In this document: positions 2,974 through 19,960 of the stretch, piece by piece
Layout: every line of letters starts with the position of its first letter
Position numbering within the stretch: the stretch's first letter is position 1
Assembly (NCBI GenBank): GCA_964507075.1
Contig: CAZDOL010000005.1
Span: 23,437 to 43,600 of the forward strand
Direction of reading: 5' to 3'
DNA length: 20,164 nucleotides
DNA from: an uncultured Gammaproteobacteria bacterium
Lineage (GTDB): Bacteria > Patescibacteriota > Patescibacteriia > UBA2591 > UBA6264
The notes under the pieces: generated by a model
Database searches by the model: none
What the model was told of the DNA's origin: nothing
What the model saw: the letters and a program-made list of their open reading frames with translations, nothing else
Translations under genes and position numbers: made by a program

Positions 2974-3048
2974 CGCGGGGTAGAGCAACGGCAGCTCGCC
3001 AGGCCCATAACCTGGAGGTTACAGGTTCAAATCCTGTCCCCGCAACCA
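2974..3048 (+). tRNA. Initiator tRNA-fMet (anticodon CAT), with encoded CCA
   Basis: Hand-folded cloverleaf: cgcgggg|ta|gagc|aacggca|gctc|g|ccagg|cccataa|cctgg|aggtt|acagg|ttcaaat|cctgt|ccccgca|a|cca. The C1xA72 mismatch and the A11:U24 pair are bacterial initiator hallmarks. Confidence 0.85.
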
Positions 3049-3049
3049 T

Positions 3050-3121
3050 GGCAGGATAGCTCAATGGTAGAGCGGCGTCTTCATAAGGCGCATGTTGCGG
3101 GTTCAATTCCCGCTCCTGCTA
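3050..3121 (+). tRNA. Second tRNA with anticodon CAT (elongator Met or lysidine-modified Ile2; undecidable by eye), no encoded CCA
   Basis: Cloverleaf: ggcagga|ta|gctc|aatggta|gagc|g|gcgtc|ttcataa|ggcgc|atgtt|gcggg|ttcaatt|cccgc|tcctgct|a. It has a G1.U72 wobble and starts 1 nt after the CCA of the first tRNA. Confidence 0.8.
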
Positions 3122-3129
3122 TTTTATAA

Positions 3130-6024: not shown

Positions 6025-6435
6025 TCAAAAGAGAATAACAGTAGCCATTGCATATGATAGTATCGCGTCCAGAAAAACGCCAGGGAAGATTTGTCTCATT
6101 CCATAACGGAAAAGATAAAATGTATCTGCTACACGGAAAATCAATATGAAAAGAGAAAAAATCAACTGGACAAAGAAAATAGCCATTAGGAAAAAGTAAA
6201 ATTGTATTCTTAACAAATCAACAATTCTATTAATGCCGAGCGAATAAATAGCTGTCAAGACACAAATTACTGTCATCAAGAATACCAAAAAAGCAAAAAA
6301 AACAATAACTAGATTACCCGTTTCTTCCTTTCGGCGTACTATAAGATCTACTGTTTTCCGAGCCATAAATAGAAATAGAAGAATTAGTGGAATATAGCAT
6401 ATCCCAAAACACAAAACTTTTTGAATTAGTGACAT
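6025..6435 (-). CDS. Hypothetical polytopic membrane protein
   Basis: 136 aa with about 4 hydrophobic segments. A strong SD (GGAGGTG) ends 4 nt before the ATG. I recognise no family. Confidence 0.7.
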   Translation of the reverse strand: MSLIQKVLCFGICYIPLILLFLFMARKTVDLIVRRKEETGNLVIVFFAFLVFLMTVICVLTAIYSLGINRIVDLLRIQFYFFLMAIFFVQLIFSLFILIFRVADTFYLFRYGMRQIFPGVFLDAILSYAMATVILF

Positions 6436-6476
6436 TTGTCACCTCCTTGTTTAATTGTAAAGAAATTAATTAATAT

Positions 6477-6505
6477 AATTATTACAGATTTAAACAATTT
6501 GTCAA
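6477..6505 (-). promoter_or_regulatory. Candidate promoter for the membrane protein gene
   Basis: On the minus strand: TTGACA (6505-6500), a 17-nt spacer, then ATAATT within a TAATAATTAT stretch. The -10 choice is ambiguous. Confidence 0.35.
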
Positions 6506-6510
6506 GATGC

Positions 6511-7215
6511 TTATTTCTTTGCTATAGCGACAATATTAGGGCGTAAAAAAGGAAAAATAGAGCCAATTATTCTATTTATAACCTTGTCTAAATTGTTTCT
6601 ATTTGGATAGTTAAAATCAGCATATCGTATTTCAATATCTTTAAATCCAACTATCTTCAAGAGATATTTAATTTCTCGAACAGAATATTCACGATAATGA
6701 TAACCAGGACCATAATCTTTTTTAATATCGTTATTTATGCTTTTTCCAAAAAAACATTTAATCCTATTATTTAATCTTAAAAGGTTAGGGGTGGTAATGA
6801 TAAGTTTCCCTTCTGGCTTTAGTGTCCTAAAGGCTTCAGTAAATACTCTTTTTGGATGAAAATTAAAATGTTCTAATGTTTCGGCCAATAAAGTAACATC
6901 AAATTTTGAATCATCAAACGGAATCTTTTCTTTTGATAAATCACAAGCTTTAATGGTTATGTTAAATTCCCTAGCTCTCTCCTGCATAAGATGATCATCA
7001 ACATCCAAATCAATCCCATATAAATTTCTACAACCCAATGAATGTACACCTAAGAGCGTGTATAAATAGTTTGAAGAGCCAATGTCAAGAAAATATTTAT
7101 CTTTGTCAAATAAATTTTTCAATAATTTGAAGATATACTCAAATCTGTATTGATGAAAATGAAAATATTCTTCTTTATTAACTTTTTGTAAAACTTGTTC
7201 GATGATTTTTGTCAT
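6511..7215 (-). CDS. Class I SAM-dependent methyltransferase
   Basis: 234 aa. It has a motif I-like FLDIGSSNY, an acidic loop YGIDLD, and LLAETLEHF / LIITTPN, which are typical of Methyltransf_11/23-type enzymes. The substrate is unknown. Confidence 0.75.
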   Translation of the reverse strand: MTKIIEQVLQKVNKEEYFHFHQYRFEYIFKLLKNLFDKDKYFLDIGSSNYLYTLLGVHSLGCRNLYGIDLDVDDHLMQERAREFNITIKACDLSKEKIPFDDSKFDVTLLAETLEHFNFHPKRVFTEAFRTLKPEGKLIITTPNLLRLNNRIKCFFGKSINNDIKKDYGPGYHYREYSVREIKYLLKIVGFKDIEIRYADFNYPNRNNLDKVINRIIGSIFPFLRPNIVAIAKK

Positions 7216-7314
7216 ACATTTTCGTTTTAATTTTGATAATTATTGTGAGCGAAGCCACGCTTAGCAGGGCGAAACGAACAACAAGGTTATGACGAGCGTA
7301 GTTAGGAATTGTTC

Positions 7315-10300
7315 TTATAAAGGAGTTACTTGAATATTGTCCCAGTAGACAACAGCATTCCCGTAATCACCCGTCCAAACGCCCAAACCAATATTGCCTC
7401 TTGTTAATCTTGTCCCTAAATCAGTAATCTCTATTGTTGAATCTTCCAAGTCATCAATGTAAATTTTAATATTCTCTCCTTGAATTATGATTTTCACATG
7501 ATGACTTTCTCCGTCATTAAAAATGTTAGGAAATACTTGAACTTCTTCTAAAATTTCATTCCCACTTTGAGTAGAAATTCTGTATAAACGTAATTTAGGC
7601 ATCCAGGACCATTGACCCATGAAATTAAGTTGATAAAAATTCTCATTATCAGCTCTACGAAACATAACATAACGATCAACTCCATCTATTAAATTAATAT
7701 CAAATTCCATTTGATAATCTTGCCAAGAATAATCACCAATAAAAGTTTCGGAATTAACAGCTTGTTGGCCTACAACAGAAACTCCATATTGTTCATTAAC
7801 TACATTCCAATAATCCTCTTCATTCCATCCATTAGAATTTCCATCATCAAAGTTCTCTGATAATTGTGGTTGTGAAACTGACGGCAAATCTAATGGATCA
7901 GATATTTCTCGCACTTGTAAATTATCAATGGCCATATCCCCTTCTTCACTGTCGCCACTTGAAACAGTAAAACCAATTTTACCGTAAGTAATAGGCAAAG
8001 TATCATCTATATAATCAACTATTTTTTCGCCATCTATATAAACCCTAATATTATTTGATTCCACAACAGCCGTCAAATGATATTCCTGCTCTTGATTAAA
8101 GTAGATTTTGCCGGGGAAAAGGTATTGCGCTAAATTAGTTCCTTGACTTGAAATTATTTTGTCTAAATAAATTCCTGGCGTTGCAGAATCAAATCCCCAA
8201 TAACCGCGCAAATTGATCAAATAATAATTTTCCTGCGATTGATAACGTAAAATCACATAACGGTCAATTCCATCATTAAGGGTTATGTCAACGTCCAATT
8301 GATAATCCTCCCAATCAGGACTCCCAGTGATAGCCCTTGCGTGTAAACTGGTGCCAATCAAATCAACTTGATATTTATTATCAACAATCTGCCATGCATT
8401 TTCGGGACAAGTTCCTGTCGGACAATTATTTGGGCCTGCTATTTTCCAATAATCAGGCAAAGCACCATCAAAATTTTCTTCATAAGGTAATGTAATGAGT
8501 CCTGATAAGGATATTCCTTGAAAAAGTGTTTTAATTTTTATATTATCAATACTCATTTTCCCAGAACCAGCATCTCCCGAATGAGCACTAAAACCAATTT
8601 TGCCTTGGGGAATACGAGCATCCTCAGTTAAATCATATTCCATCATTTTCTCGTTATCTAAATAAATTTGGATGATGTCGTCATTAACTCCAATTGTAAA
8701 TTGATATTCTTGTCCGTTATTAAATGTCGATAACAAAGGATAGGACAAGGACGACAACAAAGTGGACTGACCTTGCTGAATTTCCTCTAAACGTATTTCT
8801 GGATTAGCGCTTTGCCATGTACCTTTTAAAATTAATTGATAATAATTTTCAGCATCTTGATAACCAAATAAAACAGAACGGTCAACGCCATTATCAAAAA
8901 TAATGTCAACATCAATTTGATAATTACGCCAGTTATCCTCGCCTGTCAAAATTTTGGCTGTAAGGTCGGTACCATTTAAATCTACTTGACATTTTTGATC
9001 AACAACCTGCCACGCTAATATTTCTCCTGATTGCGTCCAATTATCATCATTGCCATCACTAAAATCATCTTCAAAAAGCGTTAAATTATTGACTAAACCA
9101 TAAGATGATTGCGGGTTTGGGTTTATTTGCGAGAAAAAATCTTGCAAATTGTTATCTGTATCTTCGCCATTACCATTCGGCCAACCCTGTTTTCTTTCAA
9201 AAGAATAATTTTGCCCTGGAATGGGAGAAAATGATGTTCCTTCTTTAACATATTGCGGATTGCCCCAAGCAAAAACATCAGTATAATTTTGTTGTAAATA
9301 TTCACTTGTCTTTTCGCTCGGATTATATGAATAAAGAACTATTGAACCATTCTCGTTGCTTAAATTAAATTGACATTCATCATAAAGCAACCAATCAATT
9401 ACTGAGCCCAGATAGCCATTTAAACCGATAAGATAATAATCCTTTGAATTAATAGTTGCTTGTTCTGGGAATTTATTTACATAAAGTGGCTCATTCCAAT
9501 CGCTCGCCTTCGTATAATACGCAAAATACCAATTTTCCAAAGAAATATCATCATCTGTTGGATTATATAATTCCACGAACTCATTATCGGCTATTTGTAT
9601 TTCACTCAATAAAACAGTTGGCAAATCAATAGAATATTCAACAGAATCCGACCACTGGCCCTGATTGCCTGCTTTATCTATAGCGCGCGTTTTAAAAGAA
9701 TAAGTTTGCCCATCTTCGCCAGTTAAATTAAAAAATATGTCTGTAGTTGAGGTTGTATTGCCAGACCAACTAATTTCATAATGATCCAACCCTGACAAAT
9801 TATCTTCTACTGCGTCCCATGAAACCCTTAAATCTAATGCTGTGTCACCTTCTTCTATTTGTGGATTTACAACCTGTTCTGGTGCGGTATTATCAAAAAT
9901 AAAATCAGCCGTTGAGGTGCTATTTTGAGCATTTCCAAAAGTGTCAAATGCTTGAGAATAGATAGAATAATAATCGTCAGTCAACAATGAATCACTTAAA
10001 TCAAAATTCCAAGTAGGTGTTGTGCTGGTAGTATTCCCTAATATTGTGCCTAACCAAAGCGAAGAATCACGCCATATTAAATCAGAAGTTGAAGTTGTGT
10101 GCCCTAAATATTGCTGGTTTGAAATTTTTTGAACTTGAATCTTTACCTCTAAAATATCGCTTGTTGTGGTAGCGTTTGAGGATGCGGTTCCTTCAATTCT
10201 ATCTGGCCAAGAAACAGAATTAAAAATATTATTAGCAAGATTAATGTTTGAAATTGGAGCCGTTAAGTCAATGGTCCATTCATAATTTTTCGTCGCTATA

Positions 10301-13300
10301 TTGCCTGCTTGGTCTATCGCCTCTAAATAAAAAATATGACCTCCTTCAGAGAGGTCATTATAGTTTTGCGGAGAAACACAATCTTGTCGCATTTCTTCGT
10401 CTATCCAACAAGAAAAAACAACTATCTCATTTGCCGAAAACTCAAATTGTGCTGATGTTTGATTGGTTAATGAATCAGGAAAAGAATCTAAAGATATTTC
10501 TGGAACGGTTGTATCAATTTCGGGCGCGGTAATAATATTACTCACCCCTTTTGTTAATGTCGTTGTTATTGAAAAATCATTTTTGTCATTGTTGGTATCT
10601 TGTCCATCAATATTGCGAGCACTAGATTGTCCTTTGCTTGGTTCGGGAGCATTGTCGCTTGCGTCTCCATCATCAAAATCTCCATAACTAATTTGATCAA
10701 TAATTGTATCATTGTATTTTAGTTTAATAATATCGCCAGTATTATTTAAGAAAAAGCTGAAATCTTGTCTTTGATTTAAAACTAACCAACTATACGACTC
10801 TAAGGTCAGACCTTCAAGTGATTTTAAAGATTCAGTATTGTCTTCAATCGTCCAATTAGTTAAATCAATTGAATCGCCAGTGTTATTAAAAAGCTCAATC
10901 CATTCTGTCTCTCCTGTTGCAGGGTCTGATACAAATTCATTAATTACTATGTCACTGAGAGAATATTGTGGGAGTTGAGTGTCCCCGCTTTCATCATCAT
11001 CTCCTGCCTCGTCATCTCCCGAACCATTACTAGATTCGTCGTCATCACCTTCCTCTTCTCCATCATTATTTTGTCCCCCTTGTTCGTTGCCACTATCGCT
11101 TACATATATACTATTTGCTTCGCCTGGAGTGCCACCATCAGACAAACTTCCGGTCCATGTCCCGTCAGATTGCTTCTCTATTGTTCTGTTATTATCATTT
11201 CCTCCCCATTCACTTAAATAAGTCAACTCGTCTATTAGATTCCCTATTCCGTCTTTTATGGCAATTGTCTCTGAAGTGTTTTTTAAAGAAAAAGAACTAT
11301 CAAAAAGAGTTCCTGAAAAATTTGTATAATCTACAACAAACGAATTCGCATTGTCAGCAATAATCGCGTAATCGCCAGAAGATAATACTAAATCCCCTTG
11401 TTGTAAATTCAAAGAATGATTCGTTTCCTCTTCATGAAATTTCCAATTAGTCAAATCAACATTTCCATCAGTTGTGTTATATATTTCTATCCACTCATGC
11501 CCAGTATCAACCCCTGACGGATTATACATTATTTCGTTAATTATAACATCTGATAATTGATGCGCTTGATATTGGACACTGGATGATCCGCCCCCTCCTC
11601 CGCCAGAAGAGCCTCCACTGGAGCCACCAGAAATCACAGCCGTAATGACATTGGCCACACCTTTGGTTAAAGTTGTTGTTATTGAAAAATCATTTTTGTC
11701 ATTGTTGGTATCTTGTCCATCAATATTGCGAGCACTAGATTGTCCTTTGCTTGGTTCGGGAGCATTGTCGCTTGCGTCTCCATCATCAAAATCTCCATAA
11801 CTAATTTGATCAATAATTGTATCATTGTATTTTAGTTTAATAATATCGCCAGTATTATTTAAGAAAAAGCTGAAATCTTGTCTTTGATTTAAAACTAACC
11901 AACTATACGACTCTAAGGTCAGACCTTCAAGTGATTTTAAAGATTCAGTATTGTCTTCAATCGTCCAATTAGTTAAATCAATTGAATCGCCAGTGTTATT
12001 AAAAAGCTCAATCCATTCTGTCTCTCCCGTTGATGGATCTGACACGAATTCATTGATTACAATATCACTGACAAGATATTGATGAGGTGAAACCTCATCA
12101 TCGTCTTTTTCGTCCTCAACTTCTTCTAATTCTTCTGGAACAGTATCTTCTTCTAACTCTTCCTCTGGCTCTGTATCCAAAACAAATTCTTCATATTTTT
12201 CTTTTATTTCATCTGTGTCTGAAAAATCCTCACCTCCCACAAAATCTATTAAAAATGGATCCTCTTCTTCATCTGTATATTGAATAAAATCACCTTCTAA
12301 AACAGGAGTGTCGCTGATGTCTGTGTCTGATAATAATTCTTCTATTTTTGCGTCTGCCTTGGGCCCACTTAACAAGCCTTTATTGACCAAATCAGCAATT
12401 TCGTCTGATTCTTTGGCTCCAAATTCTACAAATTGTTGCGTTTTCCGCCAAAAACCTAAGGCAGCATCAAGGTTATCAACTGGATTATCATTTTTTAAAA
12501 AATCTAAATTAATTTTAATTTGGTCAGCGTCAGATAAATCTGCCAATTCTTTGCCAATCGTTAGCCAAGATTTTATAGAACCAAAAAAATTAGCTATCTT
12601 TGATGGTAAGCCAAATTTTTTAGAGATAAGAGTTTTGGCACACAATTTTCCGGTTTCATCAACTATTCTTTTACTAAAAGCCATGATCAAGTTAATCTGA
12701 CGACGTTGTTCTGAGAGTCCATCAACTAATTGAGATTTACCAATAGAAGCAATCTCAATATCTACAGGAACGTCTTTTAGGCTAGACTGTTTAAATTGCG
12801 TGGCGGGAAAGAAAAAATATCTTTCCCCCTCATAATTATAGCCCAAAATATTTATCGTCAATATCTTGCTGATATCTATTTCTGCCTTCATCATCGCTAT
12901 AATCTCTTTGAATTCTTTAAATGCAAATTTCTCCCAAAAATCACCTTGACCCAATTTATGAATTTTCGAAAATTCTTGAGATAACGAGAAACAATCACCA
13001 GATTCATTAATCTCACTTTGATTATCAAAACCGTCTGGAGTGATATTAATGGCATAATAACTATAATTCATTAGGGGATCTGGATGATAAGTTAAATGCG
13101 GAGCATTAGCGCTTTCGTAAATCTTTTCCACGAAACCAACAGATGTCCATTCCCCGCTTTGGGGACCTTTTTGATCACCATAAGTGTAATCAAAAAGTTC
13201 ATGATCCTGAGCAACAATTTTCCTCATTATCGACTTAGCTATTTTATGATTATATTCAAAATCCTGGGGAATTTTAGCCCCAACAAATTCTTCTCCTTTA

Positions 13301-13593
13301 TCTATGTCAACAAAGTATTTCGCGGGAATAATACGCACCTCACCATAATCCACTTCAACGACTAACGGAACGCCTGTTTTCTGTGCTTTGCCAACATAAA
13401 TGCCAACCGCGCCTGGATAAACTTGACCAGAAATAAACGAGCTTTCAAAATTATTGTAGCCATACATTTTGCCATCTTCGGAAGTGTGATAAATAACTGA
13501 ACCCCATGGCAAAGCAAAAGCATTGGTAGTAATGCCAATGCCAAGAAAAAATATTAAACCAAAAAGAATACTTTTTTTGTGAACAATATTCAT
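7315..13593 (-). CDS. Giant secreted multidomain protein: signal peptide, N-terminal globular domain, 4 lamin-tail (LTD) domains, Ig/FN3-like modules, 3 C-terminal ConA-like (DUF1080/LamG-like) modules
   Basis: 2092 aa. The signal peptide is MNIVHKKSILFGLIFFLGIGITTNAFA. LTD signatures are VINEFVSDPxTGETEWIELFNNTGDSIDLTNW (twice), IINEIMYNPSGVDTGHEWIEIYNTT and LLSEIQIADNEFVELYNPT. An FN3-like segment reads LRVSWDAVEDNLSGLDHYEISW...YSFKTRAIDKAGN. Three roughly 190-aa repeats each end in GKIGF..H/S.GD....IDNI/LxV. Acidic and Gly/Ser linkers separate the domains. Confidence 0.85.
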   Translation of the reverse strand: MNIVHKKSILFGLIFFLGIGITTNAFALPWGSVIYHTSEDGKMYGYNNFESSFISGQVYPGAVGIYVGKAQKTGVPLVVEVDYGEVRIIPAKYFVDIDKGEEFVGAKIPQDFEYNHKIAKSIMRKIVAQDHELFDYTYGDQKGPQSGEWTSVGFVEKIYESANAPHLTYHPDPLMNYSYYAINITPDGFDNQSEINESGDCFSLSQEFSKIHKLGQGDFWEKFAFKEFKEIIAMMKAEIDISKILTINILGYNYEGERYFFFPATQFKQSSLKDVPVDIEIASIGKSQLVDGLSEQRRQINLIMAFSKRIVDETGKLCAKTLISKKFGLPSKIANFFGSIKSWLTIGKELADLSDADQIKINLDFLKNDNPVDNLDAALGFWRKTQQFVEFGAKESDEIADLVNKGLLSGPKADAKIEELLSDTDISDTPVLEGDFIQYTDEEEDPFLIDFVGGEDFSDTDEIKEKYEEFVLDTEPEEELEEDTVPEELEEVEDEKDDDEVSPHQYLVSDIVINEFVSDPSTGETEWIELFNNTGDSIDLTNWTIEDNTESLKSLEGLTLESYSWLVLNQRQDFSFFLNNTGDIIKLKYNDTIIDQISYGDFDDGDASDNAPEPSKGQSSARNIDGQDTNNDKNDFSITTTLTKGVANVITAVISGGSSGGSSGGGGGGSSSVQYQAHQLSDVIINEIMYNPSGVDTGHEWIEIYNTTDGNVDLTNWKFHEEETNHSLNLQQGDLVLSSGDYAIIADNANSFVVDYTNFSGTLFDSSFSLKNTSETIAIKDGIGNLIDELTYLSEWGGNDNNRTIEKQSDGTWTGSLSDGGTPGEANSIYVSDSGNEQGGQNNDGEEEGDDDESSNGSGDDEAGDDDESGDTQLPQYSLSDIVINEFVSDPATGETEWIELFNNTGDSIDLTNWTIEDNTESLKSLEGLTLESYSWLVLNQRQDFSFFLNNTGDIIKLKYNDTIIDQISYGDFDDGDASDNAPEPSKGQSSARNIDGQDTNNDKNDFSITTTLTKGVSNIITAPEIDTTVPEISLDSFPDSLTNQTSAQFEFSANEIVVFSCWIDEEMRQDCVSPQNYNDLSEGGHIFYLEAIDQAGNIATKNYEWTIDLTAPISNINLANNIFNSVSWPDRIEGTASSNATTTSDILEVKIQVQKISNQQYLGHTTSTSDLIWRDSSLWLGTILGNTTSTTPTWNFDLSDSLLTDDYYSIYSQAFDTFGNAQNSTSTADFIFDNTAPEQVVNPQIEEGDTALDLRVSWDAVEDNLSGLDHYEISWSGNTTSTTDIFFNLTGEDGQTYSFKTRAIDKAGNQGQWSDSVEYSIDLPTVLLSEIQIADNEFVELYNPTDDDISLENWYFAYYTKASDWNEPLYVNKFPEQATINSKDYYLIGLNGYLGSVIDWLLYDECQFNLSNENGSIVLYSYNPSEKTSEYLQQNYTDVFAWGNPQYVKEGTSFSPIPGQNYSFERKQGWPNGNGEDTDNNLQDFFSQINPNPQSSYGLVNNLTLFEDDFSDGNDDNWTQSGEILAWQVVDQKCQVDLNGTDLTAKILTGEDNWRNYQIDVDIIFDNGVDRSVLFGYQDAENYYQLILKGTWQSANPEIRLEEIQQGQSTLLSSLSYPLLSTFNNGQEYQFTIGVNDDIIQIYLDNEKMMEYDLTEDARIPQGKIGFSAHSGDAGSGKMSIDNIKIKTLFQGISLSGLITLPYEENFDGALPDYWKIAGPNNCPTGTCPENAWQIVDNKYQVDLIGTSLHARAITGSPDWEDYQLDVDITLNDGIDRYVILRYQSQENYYLINLRGYWGFDSATPGIYLDKIISSQGTNLAQYLFPGKIYFNQEQEYHLTAVVESNNIRVYIDGEKIVDYIDDTLPITYGKIGFTVSSGDSEEGDMAIDNLQVREISDPLDLPSVSQPQLSENFDDGNSNGWNEEDYWNVVNEQYGVSVVGQQAVNSETFIGDYSWQDYQMEFDINLIDGVDRYVMFRRADNENFYQLNFMGQWSWMPKLRLYRISTQSGNEILEEVQVFPNIFNDGESHHVKIIIQGENIKIYIDDLEDSTIEITDLGTRLTRGNIGLGVWTGDYGNAVVYWDNIQVTPL
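10541..10975. repeat. Intragenic direct repeat, copy A (encodes LTD 3)
   Basis: 10562..10914 is base-for-base identical to 11675..12027 (353 bp by my manual comparison), an offset of 1113 bp or 371 codons. The flanks are diverged but alignable. Confidence 0.85.
11654..12088. repeat. Intragenic direct repeat, copy B (encodes LTD 1)
   Basis: Partner of 10541..10975. The perfect core is 11675..12027. Confidence 0.85.
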
Positions 13594-13629
13594 ATAAATA
13601 AATTATTATTAATTACTAACAATTAGACA

Positions 13630-14541
13630 TCAATAATCGCCTAAAAATGTATTACTTATATAATCATCTATTTCTTCTTGCGTGGCTTCAATGTCTTGTG
13701 TTTTGCCAGTCAAGGATTCTAATACATCAGCTACTGCCACCCTAATCGTATATTCTTTATGCCCCAATAAAGGTTCTAAACTTATAATTAATTCATCAAG
13801 GTTCTCTGTGGTGTTCTCTCGGGCAATATCTTCAATGGCCAATAAAGCCAAACTGCGACCCGTTAAATCATTTGTCTCGCCTAAAGCAATTTTCACAAGT
13901 TCAGAAATTTGCTTCTGTCCTCCTGCCCTACCCAAAGCATTCGCAACTTCTAACCGAACACTTGAGGCTGGATTGATTAAATTAGTAAACAAGGCCCTTT
14001 CAAGACCTTCTGTATCTATTGTGCTCATGTTCGCCAAAACCTTTCTTTTGAAGTCAGGATGAACATTTGGATCTATAATCATTTGCTCTTGAAGCGCTAT
14101 AATTTTTTCGTCATCTATTTGCGCATCTAATAAATAAGAATAAGCGAGTTGACGAAGGTCAAATGGGTTTTCGTTTTCTGTTGCAATAGAATAATAAAAA
14201 TCAGATTCTTGAATAGTAATTAATTGATTATCTCCTCTGGAAAGGCCAAAAAACATACCTAAAGCAAATATCCTATTTTCCTCTGATTTATTTTTGTCTT
14301 GGATGATTTGTATTAATTCAATTTTTTGAGTGCCAATAACATCATTTAATCTATCGGCTATCTCTAACTCGCAATCTTCGCCACCCCTCGTTTGACACTT
14401 TCTGTATATAGATTCAAGCGTTGTTAATTTGTCTTCTGCCGACAATCCATGCCACGCTAAACGAGTGAGATACAAATAAATACTAATTATTGCAATAATT
14501 GATAAAATAATTACCAAAAAAAATTTAATTGATTTTTTCAT
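13630..14541 (-). CDS. Membrane-anchored hypothetical protein with HEAT/PBS-lyase-like repeats
   Basis: 303 aa with an N-terminal TM segment (FFLVIILSIIAIISIYLYL). The C-terminal half has HEAT-like units (SSVRLEVANALGRAGG; EYTIRVAVADVLESL). It ends 36 nt before the giant gene, so it is probably co-transcribed. Confidence 0.7.
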   Translation of the reverse strand: MKKSIKFFLVIILSIIAIISIYLYLTRLAWHGLSAEDKLTTLESIYRKCQTRGGEDCELEIADRLNDVIGTQKIELIQIIQDKNKSEENRIFALGMFFGLSRGDNQLITIQESDFYYSIATENENPFDLRQLAYSYLLDAQIDDEKIIALQEQMIIDPNVHPDFKRKVLANMSTIDTEGLERALFTNLINPASSVRLEVANALGRAGGQKQISELVKIALGETNDLTGRSLALLAIEDIARENTTENLDELIISLEPLLGHKEYTIRVAVADVLESLTGKTQDIEATQEEIDDYISNTFLGDY

Positions 14542-14555
14542 AGATATGATTGTTA

Positions 14556-14579
14556 TTTTTTTAAAACAAAAAAATACTA

Positions 14580-14595
<16 letters not shown>
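14556..14595 (-). terminator. Terminator/attenuator hairpin between the leader ORF and the HEAT-repeat gene
   Basis: On the minus strand: AAATACTACT-TTTT-AGTAGTATTT (10-bp perfect stem, 14595-14572) followed by TTTTGTTTTAAAAAAA. The TAG stop of the leader ORF (14582-14580) lies at the boundary between the loop and the 3' arm. Confidence 0.55.
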
Positions 14596-14780
<185 letters not shown>

Positions 14781-14800
14781 AAAATTTGTTTACTCCTTTA

Positions 14801-14829
14801 AATATAGTACAACACAAAAAAGAGGTCAA
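14801..14829 (-). promoter_or_regulatory. Promoter of the leader / HEAT-repeat / giant-protein transcription unit
   Basis: On the minus strand: TTGACC (14829-14824), a 17-nt spacer, then TATATT (14806-14801). It lies immediately downstream of the ybaB terminator. Confidence 0.55.
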
Positions 14830-14834
14830 GGATA

Positions 14835-14863
14835 AAACACAAAAAACCAACCCGTCGGGTTGG
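14835..14863 (-). terminator. Intrinsic terminator of ybaB
   Basis: On the minus strand: CCAACCC-gac-GGGTTGG followed by TTTTTTGTGTTTT. Confidence 0.7.
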
Positions 14864-14894
14864 TTATGAAATTTTACCTTTTCTGTTTAAAAAA

Positions 14895-15140
14895 TTAGAA
14901 GCCTGCTTTAAGGTGAGACATCTGAGAAGCTAAATTGAATTGCATTTTACGTATAGCCTGATTAAAACATTTCTTAATAGAATCTTCTTGTTCCTTTATC
15001 TCTAAATCTGGATTAAGAGTAATTCTTAAAATTTCCATTTTACCGTTAATTACTATCTCTACTCCATTCACTTCTTCCTGCACCTCTTCTTTTGTTAAAA
15101 TGCTTTGCATTTGTTTTAATTGTTTTAACTTATCAAACAT
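14895..15140 (-). CDS. ybaB: YbaB/EbfC-family nucleoid-associated protein (short form)
   Basis: 81 aa. The N-terminus MFDKLKQLKQMQ..., then the EVNGVEIVINGKMEILRITLNPDL core and the C-terminal helix, match my recollection of the YbaB/EbfC (DUF149) pattern. Confidence 0.7.
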   Translation of the reverse strand: MFDKLKQLKQMQSILTKEEVQEEVNGVEIVINGKMEILRITLNPDLEIKEQEDSIKKCFNQAIRKMQFNLASQMSHLKAGF

Positions 15141-15160
15141 AAATTTAAATTATGGATTAA

Positions 15161-15245
15161 AAATAAAAAATGGTGCTCATTTGGCATCTAAAGGGCGAAC
15201 CCTTTGTCAGCTACAAGAACCGAAGTTCTAAAACAAGCACCACTA
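15161..15245 (-). ncRNA. Candidate structured small RNA, unit 1 (three-way junction, two UUCG tetraloops, terminator-like closing helix plus U-tract)
   Basis: Minus-strand RNA: UGGUGCUUGUUU-U-AGAAC(UUCG)GUUCU-UGUAGCUGAC-AAAGGG(UUCG)CCCUUU-AGAUGCC-AAAUGAGCACCA-UUUUUUAUUUUU. The 12-bp P1 has two G.U pairs that would be C.A mismatches on the plus strand. Four compensatory pair changes occur against unit 2 (18711-18794). Confidence 0.6.
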
Positions 15246-15247
15246 AT

Positions 15248-15292
15248 AGAATAACAGAAACGATTTTTTTAGCAATACCTATCTGTGGATAA
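15248..15292 (-). promoter_or_regulatory. Promoter of sRNA unit 1 with an upstream DnaA-box consensus
   Basis: On the minus strand: TTATCCACA (15292-15284), 8 nt, TTGCTA (15275-15270), 16 nt, TATTCT (15253-15248), then 5 nt to the P1 helix. The same layout occurs in units 2 and 3 while the spacer sequences differ. Confidence 0.55.
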
Positions 15293-15301
15293 CTAAAACA
15301 A

Positions 15302-15461
15302 TAAAAAAATGGTGTTAGATTAGAATCTAGTAAAACTTTCAATTAATAAATTAAATAACCGAAATTAAATAATCCAATAAAATTAAGCAAAACTTTCAAC
15401 TAATAAATTAAATAACCGAAGTTAAATAACTTTGAGAAATAAATCCCACTAACACCATTAA
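15302..15461 (-). ncRNA. Candidate structured small RNA, unit 3 (expanded variant with AU-rich interior)
   Basis: Closing helix ATGGTGTTAG (15309-15318) pairs with CTAACACCAT (15449-15458), followed on the minus strand by UUUUUUUAU. The interior carries two tandem ~57-nt modules, each with a (U/C)UUCGG element. Confidence 0.45.
15332..15447. repeat. Tandem direct repeat (2 x ~57 bp) inside unit 3
   Basis: aaaactttcaaTtaataaattaaataaccgaaAttaaataa (15332-) aligns with aaaactttcaaCtaataaattaaataaccgaaGttaaataa (15389-). This is 41 nt with 2 differences, after which the tails diverge. Confidence 0.8.
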
Positions 15462-15462
15462 T

Positions 15463-15508
15463 AACTTAACACCTTAAATAATATTGACAATACTTGAACT
15501 GTGGATAA
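15463..15508 (-). promoter_or_regulatory. Promoter of sRNA unit 3 with an upstream DnaA-box consensus
   Basis: On the minus strand: TTATCCACA (15508-15500), 9 nt, TTGTCA (15490-15485), 16 nt, TAAGTT (15468-15463), then ATTAA and the P1 helix. Confidence 0.5.
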
Positions 15509-15546
15509 CTTAAAAAGTGGACTCCAATGGGTTTTCTGGCTTTATT

Positions 15547-18120
15547 TTATTCAATAAAATTTTCAATCCAATCTGGTCTATTAAGAGGATCTGTCTCTAA
15601 CATTTCTCTCCATTTTTCATCTGTCAAACGATCTTTCATTGGCCAAGGAAATTCATAATAACTAAACATTGGACCAACAGCCAAACCAATCCTGCCATCT
15701 TTTGCTTTGTGAGCAACTATTACCCAATCAACCTTGCCTGTCCCAACTTCTAACGCTTTCTTAGTGTTTGATTCTGTGTGTACATCAGCAATAATTGTGG
15801 TTTTAAATGCATCATCTTTGCCTTGCAATGATTTCTGTTCTTGGCTGCCTGGCAATTCTACTCCTTCTTTGACGGTTAATGCCGAAGCCAAATCTTCAAT
15901 AATAGCATTAAAGCTCTTGTCAATTTGTTCTATATAGTCATAGTCCCCTTCACTCAATACTTTGCCTTCTAATTCTTTTTCTGAAATTTCTTGCAATCTA
16001 GCCATCATATCTCTGCTTTGCTCTAAAGATTTTTTAACATCTTCTGTCATTACTCCTTGCTCTTCCAGGCCTTGAATTAAAAATTCAGTAATAAATTTAG
16101 CGCGAGCAAATAATTCGGGATTTGGCTCTACATAGCCATAATATTTAGCGTTCATGGGGGCTGGCGCTGAAGTCACCCTCATCATTACTACTTTAGTGTA
16201 ACTTTGCTTAACATAAAGGATTGTATCATGTCTTAACTGCGCCCAAGAGGATAAAGCAGTAACCAAATCTTTATTTTCCCATATTAATGACCTCATCCAA
16301 TTAGGATAACCCTCTGGCTTTTCTTCTAGAACTGGTTGAATCATCCAAAGCCAAGAGTTGTATAAATTTTTAGTCCATTTTTTTTGATCATAACCTTTAA
16401 CTAAATTTTTCATTTCCTGGCTTTTTTTGTCATAATCGCAAAATGTTGACATATTTTTCTCAACCAACAATTCGTCAGCTCTTTTTGAACCCAAAACTGA
16501 CATTACATCTAATCCTGTTGGCATAAACCTGCAAACATTCCATAATTGTTTTTCGTCCAATCCCTCACACACGCCATATACATACATTTCCATTGCCTTA
16601 GAGCATACCTCATTCCAATATTTTATTTTGTCTTTGTTCATGCTATCGCAGGAATAATAAAAATCTTCGGGCTCACTTAACTTTTCATAAGTCTCTTTAC
16701 ATTGGATAACTCTTTTATAATATCCTGAGTTTGGATTAACCCCAACATTATTATAAACCATATCTGATAAAATATGAGAATCAAGCGCATATCTTTGCCC
16801 GATTAATCTTAAACCCTGTGTTGTGTCTTTTAAATTGCCAGCTAAATCAAATTCAAATCCACCTAAAATCTTCGGTCCTCTTATCTTTCTAATCTCGCTT
16901 TGCATATTTTCGGCAATCTGTTCTTTTAATTCTTTATTTTTATCAAATTCATAAGTAAATAAATTAAAAATAGCTGCGTCATATTCATAAAAAGTCAAAT
17001 CATCAGAAGCTCCAGCAAAAAATCCCGTCACAGTATATATTTTATTCCATAAATCCATCACATCTGCTGATTTTACAGCATCGGTCAATAAAACAGCTTG
17101 CTTAGTCCAGTTTTCGCCTACGGCCTTAAAAGTCATTCTGCCCAACCACATCATAGATTTAAAATATTGTTTTAATTCTTCGCTAGAAGTATAGTGTCCT
17201 CTGGGAACATACTGACTGTAATCTTCGCAATAACACGACTTAAGACATACTTCCTTATATAAATCTTGAAATCTCCATATCTCTCCTTGATATTCTACGT
17301 CGCCCTTAACCTCTTGATTGCAGACATAATCAAGATCAGGAGGATATAATCTGCTATCACAAACATCTGGACAATCTTTGCTGAATAACTCATTTTTGAA
17401 AAATCCTTTATGCGCTTCTATTCTCTCTATCTCATGTTCTACATCTTTCTTGACATTTTTGGGAATACTGAAACTCGGATCCAATAATTTTGTAGCAACC
17501 GCCAGATACGCCATATTTCTTCTTGATAATTCCTTTAAATTTTCATCTTCTAAACTATTATATTGATTTTCTGCTTCATTAATGGCTTTATCTAAAAATT
17601 CATTTAGCATCGGCGTTAGCTTGTTAATTTCAATATTTTTAAGAAGTTCATTGAACTCAATGTGGAATAAATGCATTACCGAATCAGCTGTAACAATAAT
17701 TGGCACGCCACTTTCGTCATATTTTCTTTCACCATCTATTTCATAAAGCTTTGAATTGTTAAGTTTATTATATGCATTTTCAAATCTATCTTGGTCGCCA
17801 GCAACGATAACAACTCCATTATTCTTTAATACTGTCTTCTGCTCTTCTGTTAGATCTAAATTAAATTTTTCCTTAATATCTCTCTCATAATTGTCTGGCA
17901 TTTCTTTTAGGGGCAAACTATATTCGGGATTATTATATTTTTTTTCAGCGAAAGAATAAGCTGGTGGATTATAGCTTAAACTTGGCTCATCCATCTCGCC
18001 TGCTGTATATTCAATAACCCTTTCAACGATAGGCCCTTCTGGTTTCACACAACCAGAAACTAAAAATAGCAGGAAAAATAACATTCCTGCTGAAAGTGAA
18101 ATTTTAATTGCTTTTTTCAT
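15547..18120 (-). CDS. Large lipoprotein of unknown function (DUF3160-like)
   Basis: 857 aa. It has a signal peptide with lipobox LVSG|C (Cys24). The motif YVPRGHYT and the overall size recall the DUF3160 family. That assignment is from memory and was not searched. Confidence 0.8.
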   Translation of the reverse strand: MKKAIKISLSAGMLFFLLFLVSGCVKPEGPIVERVIEYTAGEMDEPSLSYNPPAYSFAEKKYNNPEYSLPLKEMPDNYERDIKEKFNLDLTEEQKTVLKNNGVVIVAGDQDRFENAYNKLNNSKLYEIDGERKYDESGVPIIVTADSVMHLFHIEFNELLKNIEINKLTPMLNEFLDKAINEAENQYNSLEDENLKELSRRNMAYLAVATKLLDPSFSIPKNVKKDVEHEIERIEAHKGFFKNELFSKDCPDVCDSRLYPPDLDYVCNQEVKGDVEYQGEIWRFQDLYKEVCLKSCYCEDYSQYVPRGHYTSSEELKQYFKSMMWLGRMTFKAVGENWTKQAVLLTDAVKSADVMDLWNKIYTVTGFFAGASDDLTFYEYDAAIFNLFTYEFDKNKELKEQIAENMQSEIRKIRGPKILGGFEFDLAGNLKDTTQGLRLIGQRYALDSHILSDMVYNNVGVNPNSGYYKRVIQCKETYEKLSEPEDFYYSCDSMNKDKIKYWNEVCSKAMEMYVYGVCEGLDEKQLWNVCRFMPTGLDVMSVLGSKRADELLVEKNMSTFCDYDKKSQEMKNLVKGYDQKKWTKNLYNSWLWMIQPVLEEKPEGYPNWMRSLIWENKDLVTALSSWAQLRHDTILYVKQSYTKVVMMRVTSAPAPMNAKYYGYVEPNPELFARAKFITEFLIQGLEEQGVMTEDVKKSLEQSRDMMARLQEISEKELEGKVLSEGDYDYIEQIDKSFNAIIEDLASALTVKEGVELPGSQEQKSLQGKDDAFKTTIIADVHTESNTKKALEVGTGKVDWVIVAHKAKDGRIGLAVGPMFSYYEFPWPMKDRLTDEKWREMLETDPLNRPDWIENFIE

Positions 18121-18174
18121 AATTTTTATAACTTAGAACTTTTAAATATAAATAAACTTTATTGAACCTACAAA

Positions 18175-18618
18175 TTAAATTCTCATTTCAATCTCTCCAG
18201 TTTCAATAAAACTGCACTTTTTATAAAAAGGAATATTGTGTTTGGCGCAATTCAAAATGATTTTATAACAATTTTTCTTGCGCGCTTGCCTAATCAGGTA
18301 TTCAATCATTCTTGTGCCAATACCCTTACCGCGCTGAGCTTGATCAGTAACAACGTTCTCAATATGACTATAAGATTGACCAGAATGTGATAAGTTTAAT
18401 TGAATCAACAGGACTGCTGTGCCAATCACTTTACCATCATGTTCACAAACACAAAGATGATGATTATCGTCAGCAATAATTCTATGCAAAGTCTCCTGCA
18501 ATTTCTTATAATCAGTTAAACCGTCCTCTTCTTTGATGGGACTTAACTGATGCAATAAATCAAGTAGAGCATTTAAGTCTGTAATGTTAGCTTGTCTAAT
18601 TTTATATATTTCTTCCAT
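18175..18618 (-). CDS. GNAT-family N-acetyltransferase
   Basis: 147 aa with the acetyl-CoA binding motif A, QRGKGIGTRMIEYLIRQARKKNCYKIIL. Confidence 0.85.
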   Translation of the reverse strand: MEEIYKIRQANITDLNALLDLLHQLSPIKEEDGLTDYKKLQETLHRIIADDNHHLCVCEHDGKVIGTAVLLIQLNLSHSGQSYSHIENVVTDQAQRGKGIGTRMIEYLIRQARKKNCYKIILNCAKHNIPFYKKCSFIETGEIEMRI

Positions 18619-18674
18619 AACTATATTATACTATATCATCTTATCTTTATTCGGCAAGCCAAATGGGGATAGCA

Positions 18675-18707
18675 GAAAACCAACCAGACGAGTTGGTTTT
18701 CTTTTTT
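18675..18707 (+). terminator. Terminator-like hairpin whose U-tract is on the plus strand
   Basis: GAAAACCAAC-cagacga-GTTGGTTTTC followed by TTTTTT on the plus strand. The minus-strand reading has only a weak U-tract. The stem is related to the ybaB terminator stem (aaccaacc/ggttggtt). Confidence 0.4.
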
Positions 18708-18710
18708 AAT

Positions 18711-18794
18711 AAAAAAAAATGGTACTTATATAGCATCTGAAAGGCGAACCTTTCGTCAGCCGAAAGAACCGAAGTTCTAATATAAGTACCATTA
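18711..18794 (-). ncRNA. Candidate structured small RNA, unit 2
   Basis: Minus-strand RNA: UGGUACUUAUAU-U-AGAAC(UUCG)GUUCU-UUCGGCUGAC-GAAAGG(UUCG)CCUUUC-AGAUGC-UAUAUAAGUACCA-UUUUUUUUU. The junction strings GCUGAC and AGAUGC are conserved with unit 1. Confidence 0.6.
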
Positions 18795-18796
18795 AT

Positions 18797-18842
18797 AGAA
18801 TAACATAAATAATTTTTTTAGCAACACCCAACATGTGGATAA
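18797..18842 (-). promoter_or_regulatory. Promoter of sRNA unit 2 with an upstream DnaA-box consensus
   Basis: On the minus strand: TTATCCACA (18842-18834), 9 nt, TTGCTA (18824-18819), 16 nt, TATTCT (18802-18797), then ATTAA and the P1 helix. Confidence 0.55.
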
Positions 18843-18944
18843 CTAAATCAAGGGACCGACCATAGAATTCTCTGATATTTCCATTCGTTCCGTTTTTTAG
18901 GAACTCATGGAATTATATTAACATATTTCATAATAGAAACAACT

Positions 18945-18964
18945 AATGATTATGGATAATCATT
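18945..18964. promoter_or_regulatory. 20-bp perfect palindrome AATGATTAT-GG-ATAATCATT (possible operator), containing a one-mismatch DnaA-box-like 9-mer
   Basis: Read directly from the sequence. TATGGATAA (18951-18959) differs from TGTGGATAA at one position. Confidence 0.4.
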
Positions 18965-19069
18965 TTCTTCAATCCCTAAATTCATATTAATTCATGGAAC
19001 GGCAATCCACAAATTCATCACAATAGCTTTAGAAAAACATCAATCATCAATGCGTGGATAATTATTTTT

Positions 19070-19101
19070 AAAAAAGGGGGACCCCATGGGTCCCCCTTTT
19101 T
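19070..19101. terminator. Bidirectional intrinsic terminator
   Basis: AAAAAA-GGGGGACCC-cat-GGGTCCCCC-TTTTT. It has a 9-bp GC stem with A and T tracts on either side. Confidence 0.7.
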
Positions 19102-19116
19102 ACTAATAACCAAAAC

Positions 19117-19131
19117 AGTGGCTGAGCCACT
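19117..19131. repeat. Second palindrome family, copy 1 (AGTGGCT-G-AGCCACT)
   Basis: aaacAgtggctGagccactAAgaa (19113-) is related to aaacGgtggctAagccactGGgaa (20095-). Both have the same orientation and flank the RAYT gene. Confidence 0.6.
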
Positions 19132-19256
19132 AAGAAAACCATATTTGTCATTACTTTCCCATCTTCTTGATGTATAATGACATTAAGGCTAAAAAGGATC
19201 CGAGCGGTTAAATACCTAAGGAGCCTTTTTCTTTTTATATTTAATTATTCCAAATT

Positions 19257-19919
19257 TCAATCTTCTAGTAAAAACTTTTTGATTTGTTTATTTTCCCTAA
19301 TTCTTTCTAAAGAATCTTCTGCAAACTCTTTGTAATCTAAGGGGCTACCAAATTGATCTGATATAATATCCTTTTTACAAAAACCTTTTTCTTCCTTGTT
19401 GTTATTAATATATTCATTCCAACTTGATTTAAAAAGTTTGGACACTCGGTGTCCAAACTTTTCTAAATTATGAACCTTATAATTTAAATTAACATAAGCA
19501 CTTAAGTGTAATAAATATTCATTAGAGCCTATGTGAATCGCTTTAAAAGGACCCTGAAACAATGAACCGTTTCGCTTATATTCTTTATTAAAAAACATTG
19601 TATAACCTAGACTAACTTTATGCATAAACTTCCTGATCCCTTCTTCAACTAACTGCTTTAAAATAAAATGATAATGATTTGGGTTAAGACAATAACAAAC
19701 AAATTCAACTAACTTTTCTTTTTTGGAGACTAAGTCTCCAAATTTGTTTCTACGAAAAATCTCTTCATAAATACTACCAATTGGGTCCAAAACATTAAAT
19801 TCTTTCATGCTAAGAAAGAATCTGTCTATATCTTCTTGACGCTCAAAAATTGTACGCTTATCTACTCCACGATTATAAATATGATAATATTCCCCGTTAA
19901 TAAATTTTACTTTTCTCAT
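19257..19919 (-). CDS. HUH/Y1 transposase of the IS200-like / REP-associated tyrosine transposase (RAYT) type
   Basis: 220 aa. It has the HUH motif in YCLNPNHYHFIL, GSLFQGPFKAIHI, the tyrosine region LSAYVNLNY, and a trailing SSW. This pattern matches PF01797-type RAYT proteins as I remember them. Confidence 0.75.
   Translation of the reverse strand: MRKVKFINGEYYHIYNRGVDKRTIFERQEDIDRFFLSMKEFNVLDPIGSIYEEIFRRNKFGDLVSKKEKLVEFVCYCLNPNHYHFILKQLVEEGIRKFMHKVSLGYTMFFNKEYKRNGSLFQGPFKAIHIGSNEYLLHLSAYVNLNYKVHNLEKFGHRVSKLFKSSWNEYINNNKEEKGFCKKDIISDQFGSPLDYKEFAEDSLERIRENKQIKKFLLED
19722..19742. repeat. REP-like palindrome copy 2, inverted loop (TAA), inside the RAYT coding sequence
   Basis: TTTGGAGAC-TAA-GTCTCCAAA. 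On the minus strand it is read in frame as K FGDLVSK K. Confidence 0.85.
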
Positions 19920-19939: not shown

Positions 19940-19960
19940 TTTGGAGACTTAGTCTCCAAA
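19940..19960. repeat. REP-like palindrome copy 3
   Basis: TTTGGAGAC-TTA-GTCTCCAAA, 20 nt upstream of the RAYT ATG. Confidence 0.85.

Follow-up and report, generated by a model that had tools for sequence, protein, structure and literature searches.

The DNA analysed here (the window, 20,164 nt, to which all positions refer) carries on its minus strand, between a DUF3160 gene (15547-18120) and ybaB (14895-15140), two successive elements resembling transcription units, unit 3 and unit 1; a paralogue of the latter, unit 2, spans 18842-18711 on the same strand. The RNA of units 1 and 2 is termed type A and that of unit 3 type B. The type-A RNA folds into a three-way junction, as shown by covariation. 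The small-RNA family is real and apparently undescribed, and confined so far to one Parcubacteria-like clade, and we lean towards reading units 1 and 2 as independent genes for a stable non-coding RNA of ~78 nt that forms a small superfamily with type B and works in trans, as a scaffold or decoy that binds protein. The original prediction for this DNA, a self-contained small-RNA gene on the minus strand with a three-way-junction fold, is borne out by the covariation of 16 homologues and by promoter and terminator positions kept across 26 promoters. To it are added a DnaA-box-like element, a tandem G.A loop, a dispersed and mobile-looking distribution, the link to ybaB and the homology with type B.

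Anatomy and covariation of the type-A RNA

Unit 1 (15292-15159, minus strand) is composed of a sigma-70-type promoter, the three-way-junction RNA and a U-tract. Its elements are as follows (MFE, minimum free energy).

15284-15292, minus strand: upstream box TTATCCACA, an exact DnaA-box consensus, 8 nt 5' of the -35 hexamer
15270-15275, minus strand: -35 hexamer TTGCTA, its TTG kept in all homologous promoters
15248-15256, minus strand: extended -10 (TG-T-TATTCT), 16 nt past the -35; TGnTAnnnT register kept, spacer variable
15165-15243, minus strand: type-A RNA, ~78 nt, three-way junction plus first U-run; 102.8 bits with the covariance model (15165-15244)
15231-15243, minus strand: 5' strand of P1, pairing with 15170-15182 over 13 bp
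15216-15229, minus strand: P2 (hairpin A), AGAAC-UUCG-GUUCU, present in the MFE fold and the alignment
15184-15211, minus strand: P3 (the hairpin B arm), with a G-C/C-G base, a 4x4 loop, a 6-bp stem and a UUCG cap
15170-15182, minus strand: 3' strand of P1, supported by the alignment, partner 15231-15243
15159-15170, minus strand: U-tract UUUUUUAUUUUU, abutting P1 and with it a predicted intrinsic terminator

The promoter reads as first described, with TTGCTA, 16 nt, TATTCT (15253-15248, preceded by TG at 15256-15255) and ~5 nt to P1. The 3' strand of P1, GAGCACCA, runs directly into U6AU5, the arrangement of an intrinsic terminator (termination is predicted from the sequence), and at least five U follow CCA or CUA in 16/16 type-A homologues. 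From the end of the U-tract to the ybaB ATG (15140) there are 18 nt. In ViennaRNA the three-way junction is both the MFE and the centroid structure of unit 1 (-26.0 kcal/mol, z -2.75).

A homologous unit had been placed at 18711-18842, and both the alignment and the covariance model confirm it.

18714-18793, minus strand: type-A RNA of unit 2; covariance model 100.4 bits, fold z -4.6
18797-18842, minus strand: promoter of unit 2, with box 18842-18834, -35 TTGCTA 18824-18819 and -10 TATTCT 18802-18797
18674-18702, bidirectional: back-up terminator hairpin (AAAACCAAC...GTTGGTTTT), just past unit 2

The two RNAs align without gaps, and unit 2 likewise gives the three-way junction as MFE and centroid (-25.2 kcal/mol). 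The helices are preserved between them as had been claimed, with 15 of the 80 aligned positions differing and not the roughly 19 first counted. All four compensatory double changes proposed for this pair are present in the alignment (columns 7/70, G-C versus A-U; 13/64, U-A versus A-U; 40/55, A-U versus G-C; 43/52, G-C versus A-U), as are the two G.U wobbles in P1 of unit 1 (columns 10/67 and 11/66). Both window copies exceed 100 bits with the type-A model (E ~1e-28), and within the window GAAC-N4-GTTC and the exact TTATCCACA are confined to the units, so the occurrence here is far beyond chance.

Homologues were collected by pattern scans, and the type-A alignment holds 16 distinct sequences of 72-97% mutual identity (mean 85%), all on AT-rich contigs. 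Scanning species-representative genomes for the loop and junction strings gave 12 matches, of which three are real (L019, L020 and L023, from two metagenome-assembled genomes, MAGs) and nine are chance matches in coding sequence (Acidobacteriaceae and others). The metagenome scan, anchored on hairpin A and GCUGAC, gave 23 loci, 16 with true homologues and seven with coding chance matches; one more divergent copy (L059/L066) was found via the promoter alone. Two pattern scans of viral contigs (IMG/VR) gave nothing beyond coding or unrelated matches, and the covariance model had no match there. In relatives whose LepA is 77-88% identical, the ~150 kb surrounding lepA hold no RNA unit, and no box except one coding coincidence. 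A protein of "Candidatus Parcubacteria bacterium 4484_255" shares 81% identity with the LepA encoded in the window, and the other named matches of this LepA are from Patescibacteria, which places the host contigs in the Patescibacteria (Candidate Phyla Radiation, CPR; Parcubacteria-like). Two NCBI MAGs that carry the RNA, CAZTWG01 and CAZTIC01 (L019, L020, L023, L087), are labelled "uncultured Gammaproteobacteria bacterium"; they share the gene order ybaB-rpsB-tsf of the CPR clade, with YbaB 77% identical, and the label looks wrong.

With the structure as originally drawn, 97.1% of the 416 pair cells of the 16-sequence alignment are standard pairs. Nine pairs carry a change in each partner: three belong to the distal stem of hairpin B and six to P1, a helix of 13 pairs that is 96% paired. 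Not one of 500 column shuffles, a control that relatedness alone can exceed, reaches the observed pairing, covarying-pair count or covariation score. When the 3' partners are shifted by 1-3 columns, pairing falls to 37-54%. RNAalifold arrives independently at the same fold, in which the base of arm B may extend to 4 bp. The orientation had been assigned to the minus strand, and the alignment agrees: 38 cells are G.U, pairing is 97.1% on the minus strand against 90.6% on the opposite strand, and because these cells become A.C mismatches there, the minus strand is the RNA strand.

The strings GCUGAC and AGAUGC had been taken for an invariant single-stranded junction. They instead face each other at the base of hairpin B (5'-GCUGAC-3' against 5'-AGAUGC-3': G-C, C-G, U.U, G.A, A.G, C.A), forming an internal loop of 4x4 nt, UGAC/AGAU, in which sheared G.A pairs in tandem are accompanied by a U.U. 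The GA on both loop strands is invariant in 16/16 sequences, and the residue opposite U varies (U, A or C). AGAUGC as such is kept only between the two window copies; homologues have AGAUGU, AGACGC, AGAAGC or GGAAGU.

Unit 3, which had been counted as a third copy of the family, is a longer relative with the same promoter and ends that pair like P1, and with a different, internally duplicated interior.

15303-15458, minus strand: unit 3, type-B RNA, ~156 nt, with paired ends AUGGUGUUAG...CUAACACCAU and a U-run; fold z -4.3
15500-15508, minus strand: box of unit 3, an exact TTATCCACA with the register kept

Its interior consists of an extra 5' hairpin and two tandem modules (a long CUUCGG-capped hairpin plus a UGA...AGAU hairpin). 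Type-B homologues occur in L059, L061 (two copies), L063, L070 and L073. A short, single-module type B (L070; L092-94) matches the type-A model at 26.8-28.7 bits (E ~1e-6) through P1 and the UGAC/AGAU arm, which relates types A and B. The core common to both is the terminal helix, the cUUCGg hairpin and the G.A loop arm; the fourth pair of P2 is G-C in type A and U-A in type B.

That the units encode a leaderless micro-ORF (open reading frame) is highly improbable. Many copies begin AUGGUG at the predicted 5' end, but the first codon of type A is ATG, GTG, ACG or ACA and an in-frame TAG interrupts unit 1 and several other copies; with neither start codon nor frame conserved, the idea is rejected for type A. 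Type-B copies do keep a 16-codon frame ending at the same UAA, and the genes here would suit leaderless translation, few having a Shine-Dalgarno sequence and TATAAT often standing 6-8 nt before ATG. Against this, the substitutions are helix-compensatory, and every inter-copy difference checked in type B would change an amino acid.

Promoter, DnaA-box-like element and proposed mechanism

A simple promoter scanner skipped the promoters of the window units (8/12 matches), and the promoter call rests on conservation across homologues. In the 26 distinct promoters of this architecture that were aligned, the -35 TTG, the extended -10 (TG and TAnnnT) and the 16-nt spacing are conserved and the spacer sequences differ. 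All 26 have the box (A)AGTTATCCACAG in a fixed register, 8 nt before the -35. In 19/26 it is the exact DnaA-box consensus TTATCCACA, and four promoters deviate only at the N position of TTATNCACA; one carries TTGTCCACA and three TTATCCCCA, the regular expression used for the box restricting which variants could be seen. The window has three exact copies of TTATCCACA, each upstream of one of the three units. The element matches the 9-mer TTATNCACA that defines a DnaA box in sequence, and this motif suggests binding by DnaA. Since P1 starts 4-7 nt past the -10, the transcription start is expected within 1-3 nt of the helix.

In the mechanism that we propose, transcription would start 1-3 nt before P1 from the sigma-70 promoter (TTGCTA, 16-nt spacer, extended -10) indicated by this conservation, with the DnaA-box-like element TTATCCACA centred near -50. 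The ends of the RNA would pair into a P1 of 11-13 bp which, with the U-run, would form an intrinsic terminator and seal both ends. P1 would close a junction of one cUUCGg-capped hairpin and a second arm with a 4x4 loop (CUGA facing GA-N-G) and a UUCG cap. The RNA would then probably serve in trans as a scaffold or decoy for protein, bound through the tandem-G.A loop and the cUUCGg hairpin, and not as an antisense regulator or switch: the inert UUCG caps, the near absence of conserved single strand, the conserved loop and junction nucleotides and the duplication of modules in type B make protein binding likelier than antisense pairing. Through its box the promoter may tie the RNA level to the replication initiator DnaA. 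Gene adjacency throughout the clade would make YbaB, a nucleoid protein, the leading, if speculative, candidate partner. At the ybaB-linked copies, which lack a back-up terminator and so leave room for read-through, such read-through may add to ybaB transcription.

Further promoters carry the box or a variant of it. A TTATCCACA-box promoter also drives an AAA_14/DUF4143 ATPase gene (L056 123-213, plus strand; L063 2040-2139, minus strand), whose short 5' untranslated region (UTR) has a perfect hairpin TTTGTGGA...TCCACAAA made of the box core and its complement; from its sequence this looks like an operator arrangement for a box-binding factor. A fourth promoter in the window (18879-18959, minus strand) has the box variant TTATCCATA (18959-18951), 8 nt, TTGTTT (18942-18937), a 16-nt spacer and TAATAT (18920-18915); it is followed by a hairpin at 18912-18879 (UUCCAUGAGUUCC...GGAACGAAUGGAA) with its own tandem G.A pair and no U-tract. 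This element could represent another type of RNA or a unit in decay.

The units could also be portable promoter-terminator modules, which insulate operons and supply a strong box-regulated promoter, the RNA serving only to terminate or to resist decay. The use of the same box promoter by the ATPase gene and the co-orientation of the units with flanking genes fit such modules. We nevertheless hold this to be decidedly improbable, because a simple hairpin would suffice to terminate, whereas conservation and covariation extend here to the GA loop, junction and hairpin B, and internal modules are duplicated in type B.

Linkage to ybaB and dispersal of the units

Directly downstream of unit 1 lies the gene that is conserved as the immediate neighbour of the RNA.

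14895-15140, minus strand: ybaB, 81 aa; Pfam YbaB_DNA_bd, E 1.8e-11

Six lineages (window unit 1; L023/L086; L060; L064/L065; L059b/L066/L089; L092-94) have a family RNA immediately 5' of ybaB, down to the 56% YbaB identity of L092-94, where the linked RNA is a short type B; in a more distant lineage, at 48% YbaB identity, ybaB is not preceded by such an RNA. Between orthologues the ybaB-linked RNAs share 78-91% identity, versus 57-79% for the third codon positions of ybaB, which indicates that the RNA is under purifying selection. Copies away from ybaB precede another unit, a tRNA or a gene for GNAT, RNase HI or a HEAT-like 303-aa protein. Most of these copies, and never the ybaB-linked ones, are followed by a second canonical terminator hairpin (AAAACCAACCCGTCGGGTTGGTTTT or similar). 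Units in tandem each have their own promoter and U-run, and units are always co-oriented with the neighbouring genes. ybaB itself has a TATAAT-like box 8-14 nt before its ATG. Among the 16 window genes, two have a Shine-Dalgarno-like sequence and several have TATAAT-like hexamers 6-8 nt before the ATG (e.g. 2837, 4108, 15140, 18618), a pattern suggesting that mRNAs of the host may be leaderless or nearly so. All protein genes of the window lie on the minus strand; two adjacent tRNA-Met (CAU) genes at 2974-3122 are the sole clear genes on the plus strand.

The original prediction had left room for a riboswitch or terminator-type leader, in which the unit would be the 5' leader of ybaB or of whichever gene follows, and P1 with the U-tract a regulated attenuator. 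We consider this quite unlikely. The 18 nt between U-tract and ATG, the recurrence of the RNA upstream of ybaB in six lineages and the missing back-up hairpin at those copies would all suit a leader, but P1, at 11-13 bp, is constitutive and forms from the very 5' end, and there is no conserved antiterminator or other alternative pairing. Moreover, the remaining copies precede unrelated genes (GNAT, HEAT-like 303-aa, RNase HI, tRNA or a further unit), usually past an extra terminator; ybaB and other genes have their own TATAAT-like box 6-14 nt before the ATG; and tandem units are self-contained, each with promoter and terminator.

The gene for the small RNA behaves like a dispersed cassette. 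L063 holds three type-A units and one type-B unit within 4.8 kb, and many assemblies break at the units. A Y1_Tnp-like protein of 220-232 aa with YHIYNRG and NHYHF motifs is encoded in the window (19257-19919, minus strand), in L061 (8213-8911) and in L063 (3594-4292); it scores 28 bits with Pfam Y1_Tnp and 16 bits with NCBIfam REP_Tyr_transpos, for which the cut-off is 80. Its gene adjoins an RNA unit in 3/3 loci where it is present, with a type-A unit on each side in L063.

Three families of near-identical terminator-like hairpins (AAAACCAACCCGNCGGGTTGGTTTT, GGGGACCCCnnGGGGTCCCC and TTTGGAGACTAAGTCTCCAAA) are reused between unrelated genes, in the window (14845-14865, 18674-18702, 19079-19093, 902-922, 19940-19960) as in L056, L061, L063, L068 and L073. 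They often directly flank RNA units, and the GC hairpin among them lies 6-7 nt before the box. In a genome of 33% GC these hairpins look like dispersed repeats of the REP (repetitive extragenic palindromic) type. In relatives with 77-88% LepA identity (L075-L085) the genes upstream of lepA are murJ, a glycosyltransferase, secDF and secA, or an AbiEii island; the window there has a block (6025-19919) of a methyltransferase, a 2092-aa LTD protein, a HEAT-like protein, ybaB, DUF3160, GNAT and Y1 genes. This differing content marks the window block as a rearranged or variable region.

Several points weigh against independent, trans-acting RNA genes. The homologues are close relatives (the covariance model has an effective sequence number of 1.29), so the compensatory changes represent few independent events, and that relatedness by itself can outdo the shuffle control. 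The invariance of P2 is largely imposed by the search patterns; in the pattern-independent copy P2 is AGGAC...GUUCU, a G.U variant. Promoter, start site and 3' end are sequence-based predictions, a long-range branched P1 is an unusual intrinsic terminator, and the DnaA and YbaB links draw on a 9-nt motif and on gene adjacency, the protein partner being hypothetical. The units cluster with a Y1 gene resembling those of RAYTs (REP-associated tyrosine transposases) and with NYN, AAA_14/DUF4143, Panacea (helix-turn-helix-Panacea pair) and insertion sequence (IS) genes (IS integrase), and a selfish dispersed element would give the same clustering with mobile or defence-type genes. Lastly, the orthologous loci L069 2480-3000 and L073 2380-2720 (methyltransferase, tRNA, GNAT) are distinguished by a whole type-A unit that only L069 has, with two similar TTTGGAG-type hairpins around it; units are hence gained or lost as cassettes.

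Taken furthest, these points would make the whole unit a selfish intergenic repeat, like REP/REPIN elements or miniature inverted-repeat transposable elements, spread either by the neighbouring RAYT-like Y1 transposase or through recombination at terminator hairpins that the sites have in common, with the RNA a by-product that has no function in trans. The high copy number in L063, the presence in L069 and absence at the orthologous L073 site with the paired flanking hairpins, the Y1_Tnp-like neighbours in the window, L061 and L063, the assembly breaks and the embedding among reused hairpin modules all agree with it. We nonetheless judge this unlikely. It is compensatory and G.U changes, not identity, that maintain P1 and hairpin B, a signature of selection on the RNA and not of recognition by a transposase. 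Through 56-85% YbaB divergence the ybaB-linked copy has kept a single orthologous position, better conserved than the third codon positions of ybaB; fixed-sequence terminal inverted repeats and target-site duplications were not seen; and the Y1 protein, at 16 bits, is far from the RAYT cut-off of 80. The units do resemble REP/REPIN-RAYT systems, as structured repeats dispersed between genes that flank a Y1_Tnp-like gene and differ in presence between strains. They differ from them in carrying a promoter and a U-tract, in helices that covary where a REP has a fixed palindrome, and in a Y1 protein far below the RAYT cut-off.

We therefore retain the reading of units 1 and 2 as genes for a trans-acting RNA. 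A bolder version, in which a multi-copy, clade-specific RNA is set by DnaA through a single box at about -50, binds or titrates YbaB and also spreads as a mobile cassette, we regard as distinctly doubtful. If a DnaA-set, YbaB-binding RNA did exist, it would connect the state of replication to nucleoid or gene control in a minimal-genome organism; an RNA that is only the by-product of a selfish repeat would be of modest interest. A large part of bacterial diversity belongs to the Patescibacteria (CPR), whose regulatory RNAs and promoters are almost unstudied. The locus offers a covariation-supported RNA family with explicit gene boundaries, a recurrent promoter with a perfect DnaA-box consensus and a conserved partnership with ybaB, and through these, RNA-protein biology, signals for transcription and regulation linked to replication become open to test in a lineage not yet grown alone.

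Comparison with known RNAs

The fold had been described as outside known families. Rfam 15 at the gathering threshold finds only the two tRNA-Met in the window and only tRNAs in 16 related loci; at E<=10, units 1-3 and the short type B give only spurious weak matches (e.g. GOLLD, 9.8 bits against a threshold of 150; KCNQ1OT1; RUF6), none of them relevant. ARAGORN finds no tRNA or tmRNA in the window beyond the two tRNA-Met at 2974-3122.

The bacterial small signal recognition particle (SRP) RNA (4.5S/scRNA) is of similar size and position upstream of ybaB; in Bacillus subtilis the SRP RNA gene scr precedes dnaX-yaaK(ybaB)-recR. A literature search on ffs-dnaX-ybaB synteny yielded nothing useful. 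It is barely credible that the RNA upstream of ybaB is a highly divergent 4.5S RNA of this clade, and SRP RNA was rejected: it is a single-copy RNA with domain IV motifs, a helix 8 ending in a GNRA tetraloop, and conserved symmetric and asymmetric loops, whereas the type-A RNA matches no SRP model at E<=10, has neither GNRA tetraloop nor domain IV loops, ends both hairpins in UUCG, and occurs in several copies and variants per genome, with at least 2-4 copies per contig.

The internal loop of hairpin B recalls box C/D RNA, the archaeal and eukaryotic guide RNAs with a C'/D' K-turn or K-loop motif. Such RNAs have a C box RUGAUGA and a D box CUGA, with tandem G.A pairs beside a 3-nt bulge, guides of 10-21 nt upstream of D/D', and L7Ae, Nop5 and fibrillarin as partner proteins (PMC12045711; bioRxiv 10.64898/2026.09.09.750476). 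The tigRNAs of TIGR (tandem interspaced guide RNA) systems, which occur in Patescibacteria, form a tandem array with two ~9-nt variable spacers per unit, box C/D flanks and an adjoining tas (Nop-domain) gene (PMC12045711; bioRxiv 10.64898/2026.09.09.750476). With the C'/D' motif and tigRNA the type-A loop shares a CUGA strand that faces a GA-U-G strand, in the order D' then C', with G-C, U.U and tandem G.A pairs. A box C/D kink-turn (K-turn) was rejected: the tandem G.A of CUGA and GAUG is there, but the 4x4 loop is symmetric, and a 1x1 C.A mismatch in place of the 3-nt bulge means that it is not a K-turn. A box C/D guide RNA was rejected because the alignment has no variable or single-stranded guide region; Nop, fibrillarin and L7Ae are absent from the Pfam domains found in the window or related loci. 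A TIGR-Tas tigRNA was rejected as well, the units being single with their own promoter and terminator and the loop strands 4 nt long and conserved; no Tas/Nop-domain gene was seen in the loci examined.

Two further candidates were discarded. Some copies match the hammerhead ribozyme core CUGANGA in part (CUGAC(G/A)A), with no GAAA strand and no Rfam match. Hairpin A as DNA, GAAC-N4-GTTC, could be read as a LexA/Cheo box; a single such site outside the units in 245 kb of related DNA gives no sign of a regulon.

A comparable arrangement is the 5' UTR of dnaX-ebfC in Borrelia burgdorferi, where ybaB/ebfC is preceded by a DnaA-binding region and by a structured RNA that is transcribed and bound by the EbfC/YbaB protein (PMC9879097). 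Both loci place a DnaA-related element and a structured RNA upstream of ybaB/ebfC. The type-A RNA differs in ending in a terminator, in having copies away from ybaB and in lacking any sequence relation to the Borrelia UTR; binding by YbaB is hypothetical here.

Among protein-binding structured small RNAs, the type-A RNA differs from the bacterial Y RNA/YrlA and from module-repeat sponges such as CsrB/RsmY in having no sequence or model similarity to them, and no Ro/Rsr or CsrA gene was seen nearby. It resembles them in being the product of a stand-alone gene, a compact RNA closed by a terminal helix in which the 5' and 3' ends pair, with conserved nucleotides in internal loop and junction and no antisense seed, and type B duplicates a module of the binding type. 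The units described here add a new RNA family to a kind of system that is already known; the kind itself is not new.

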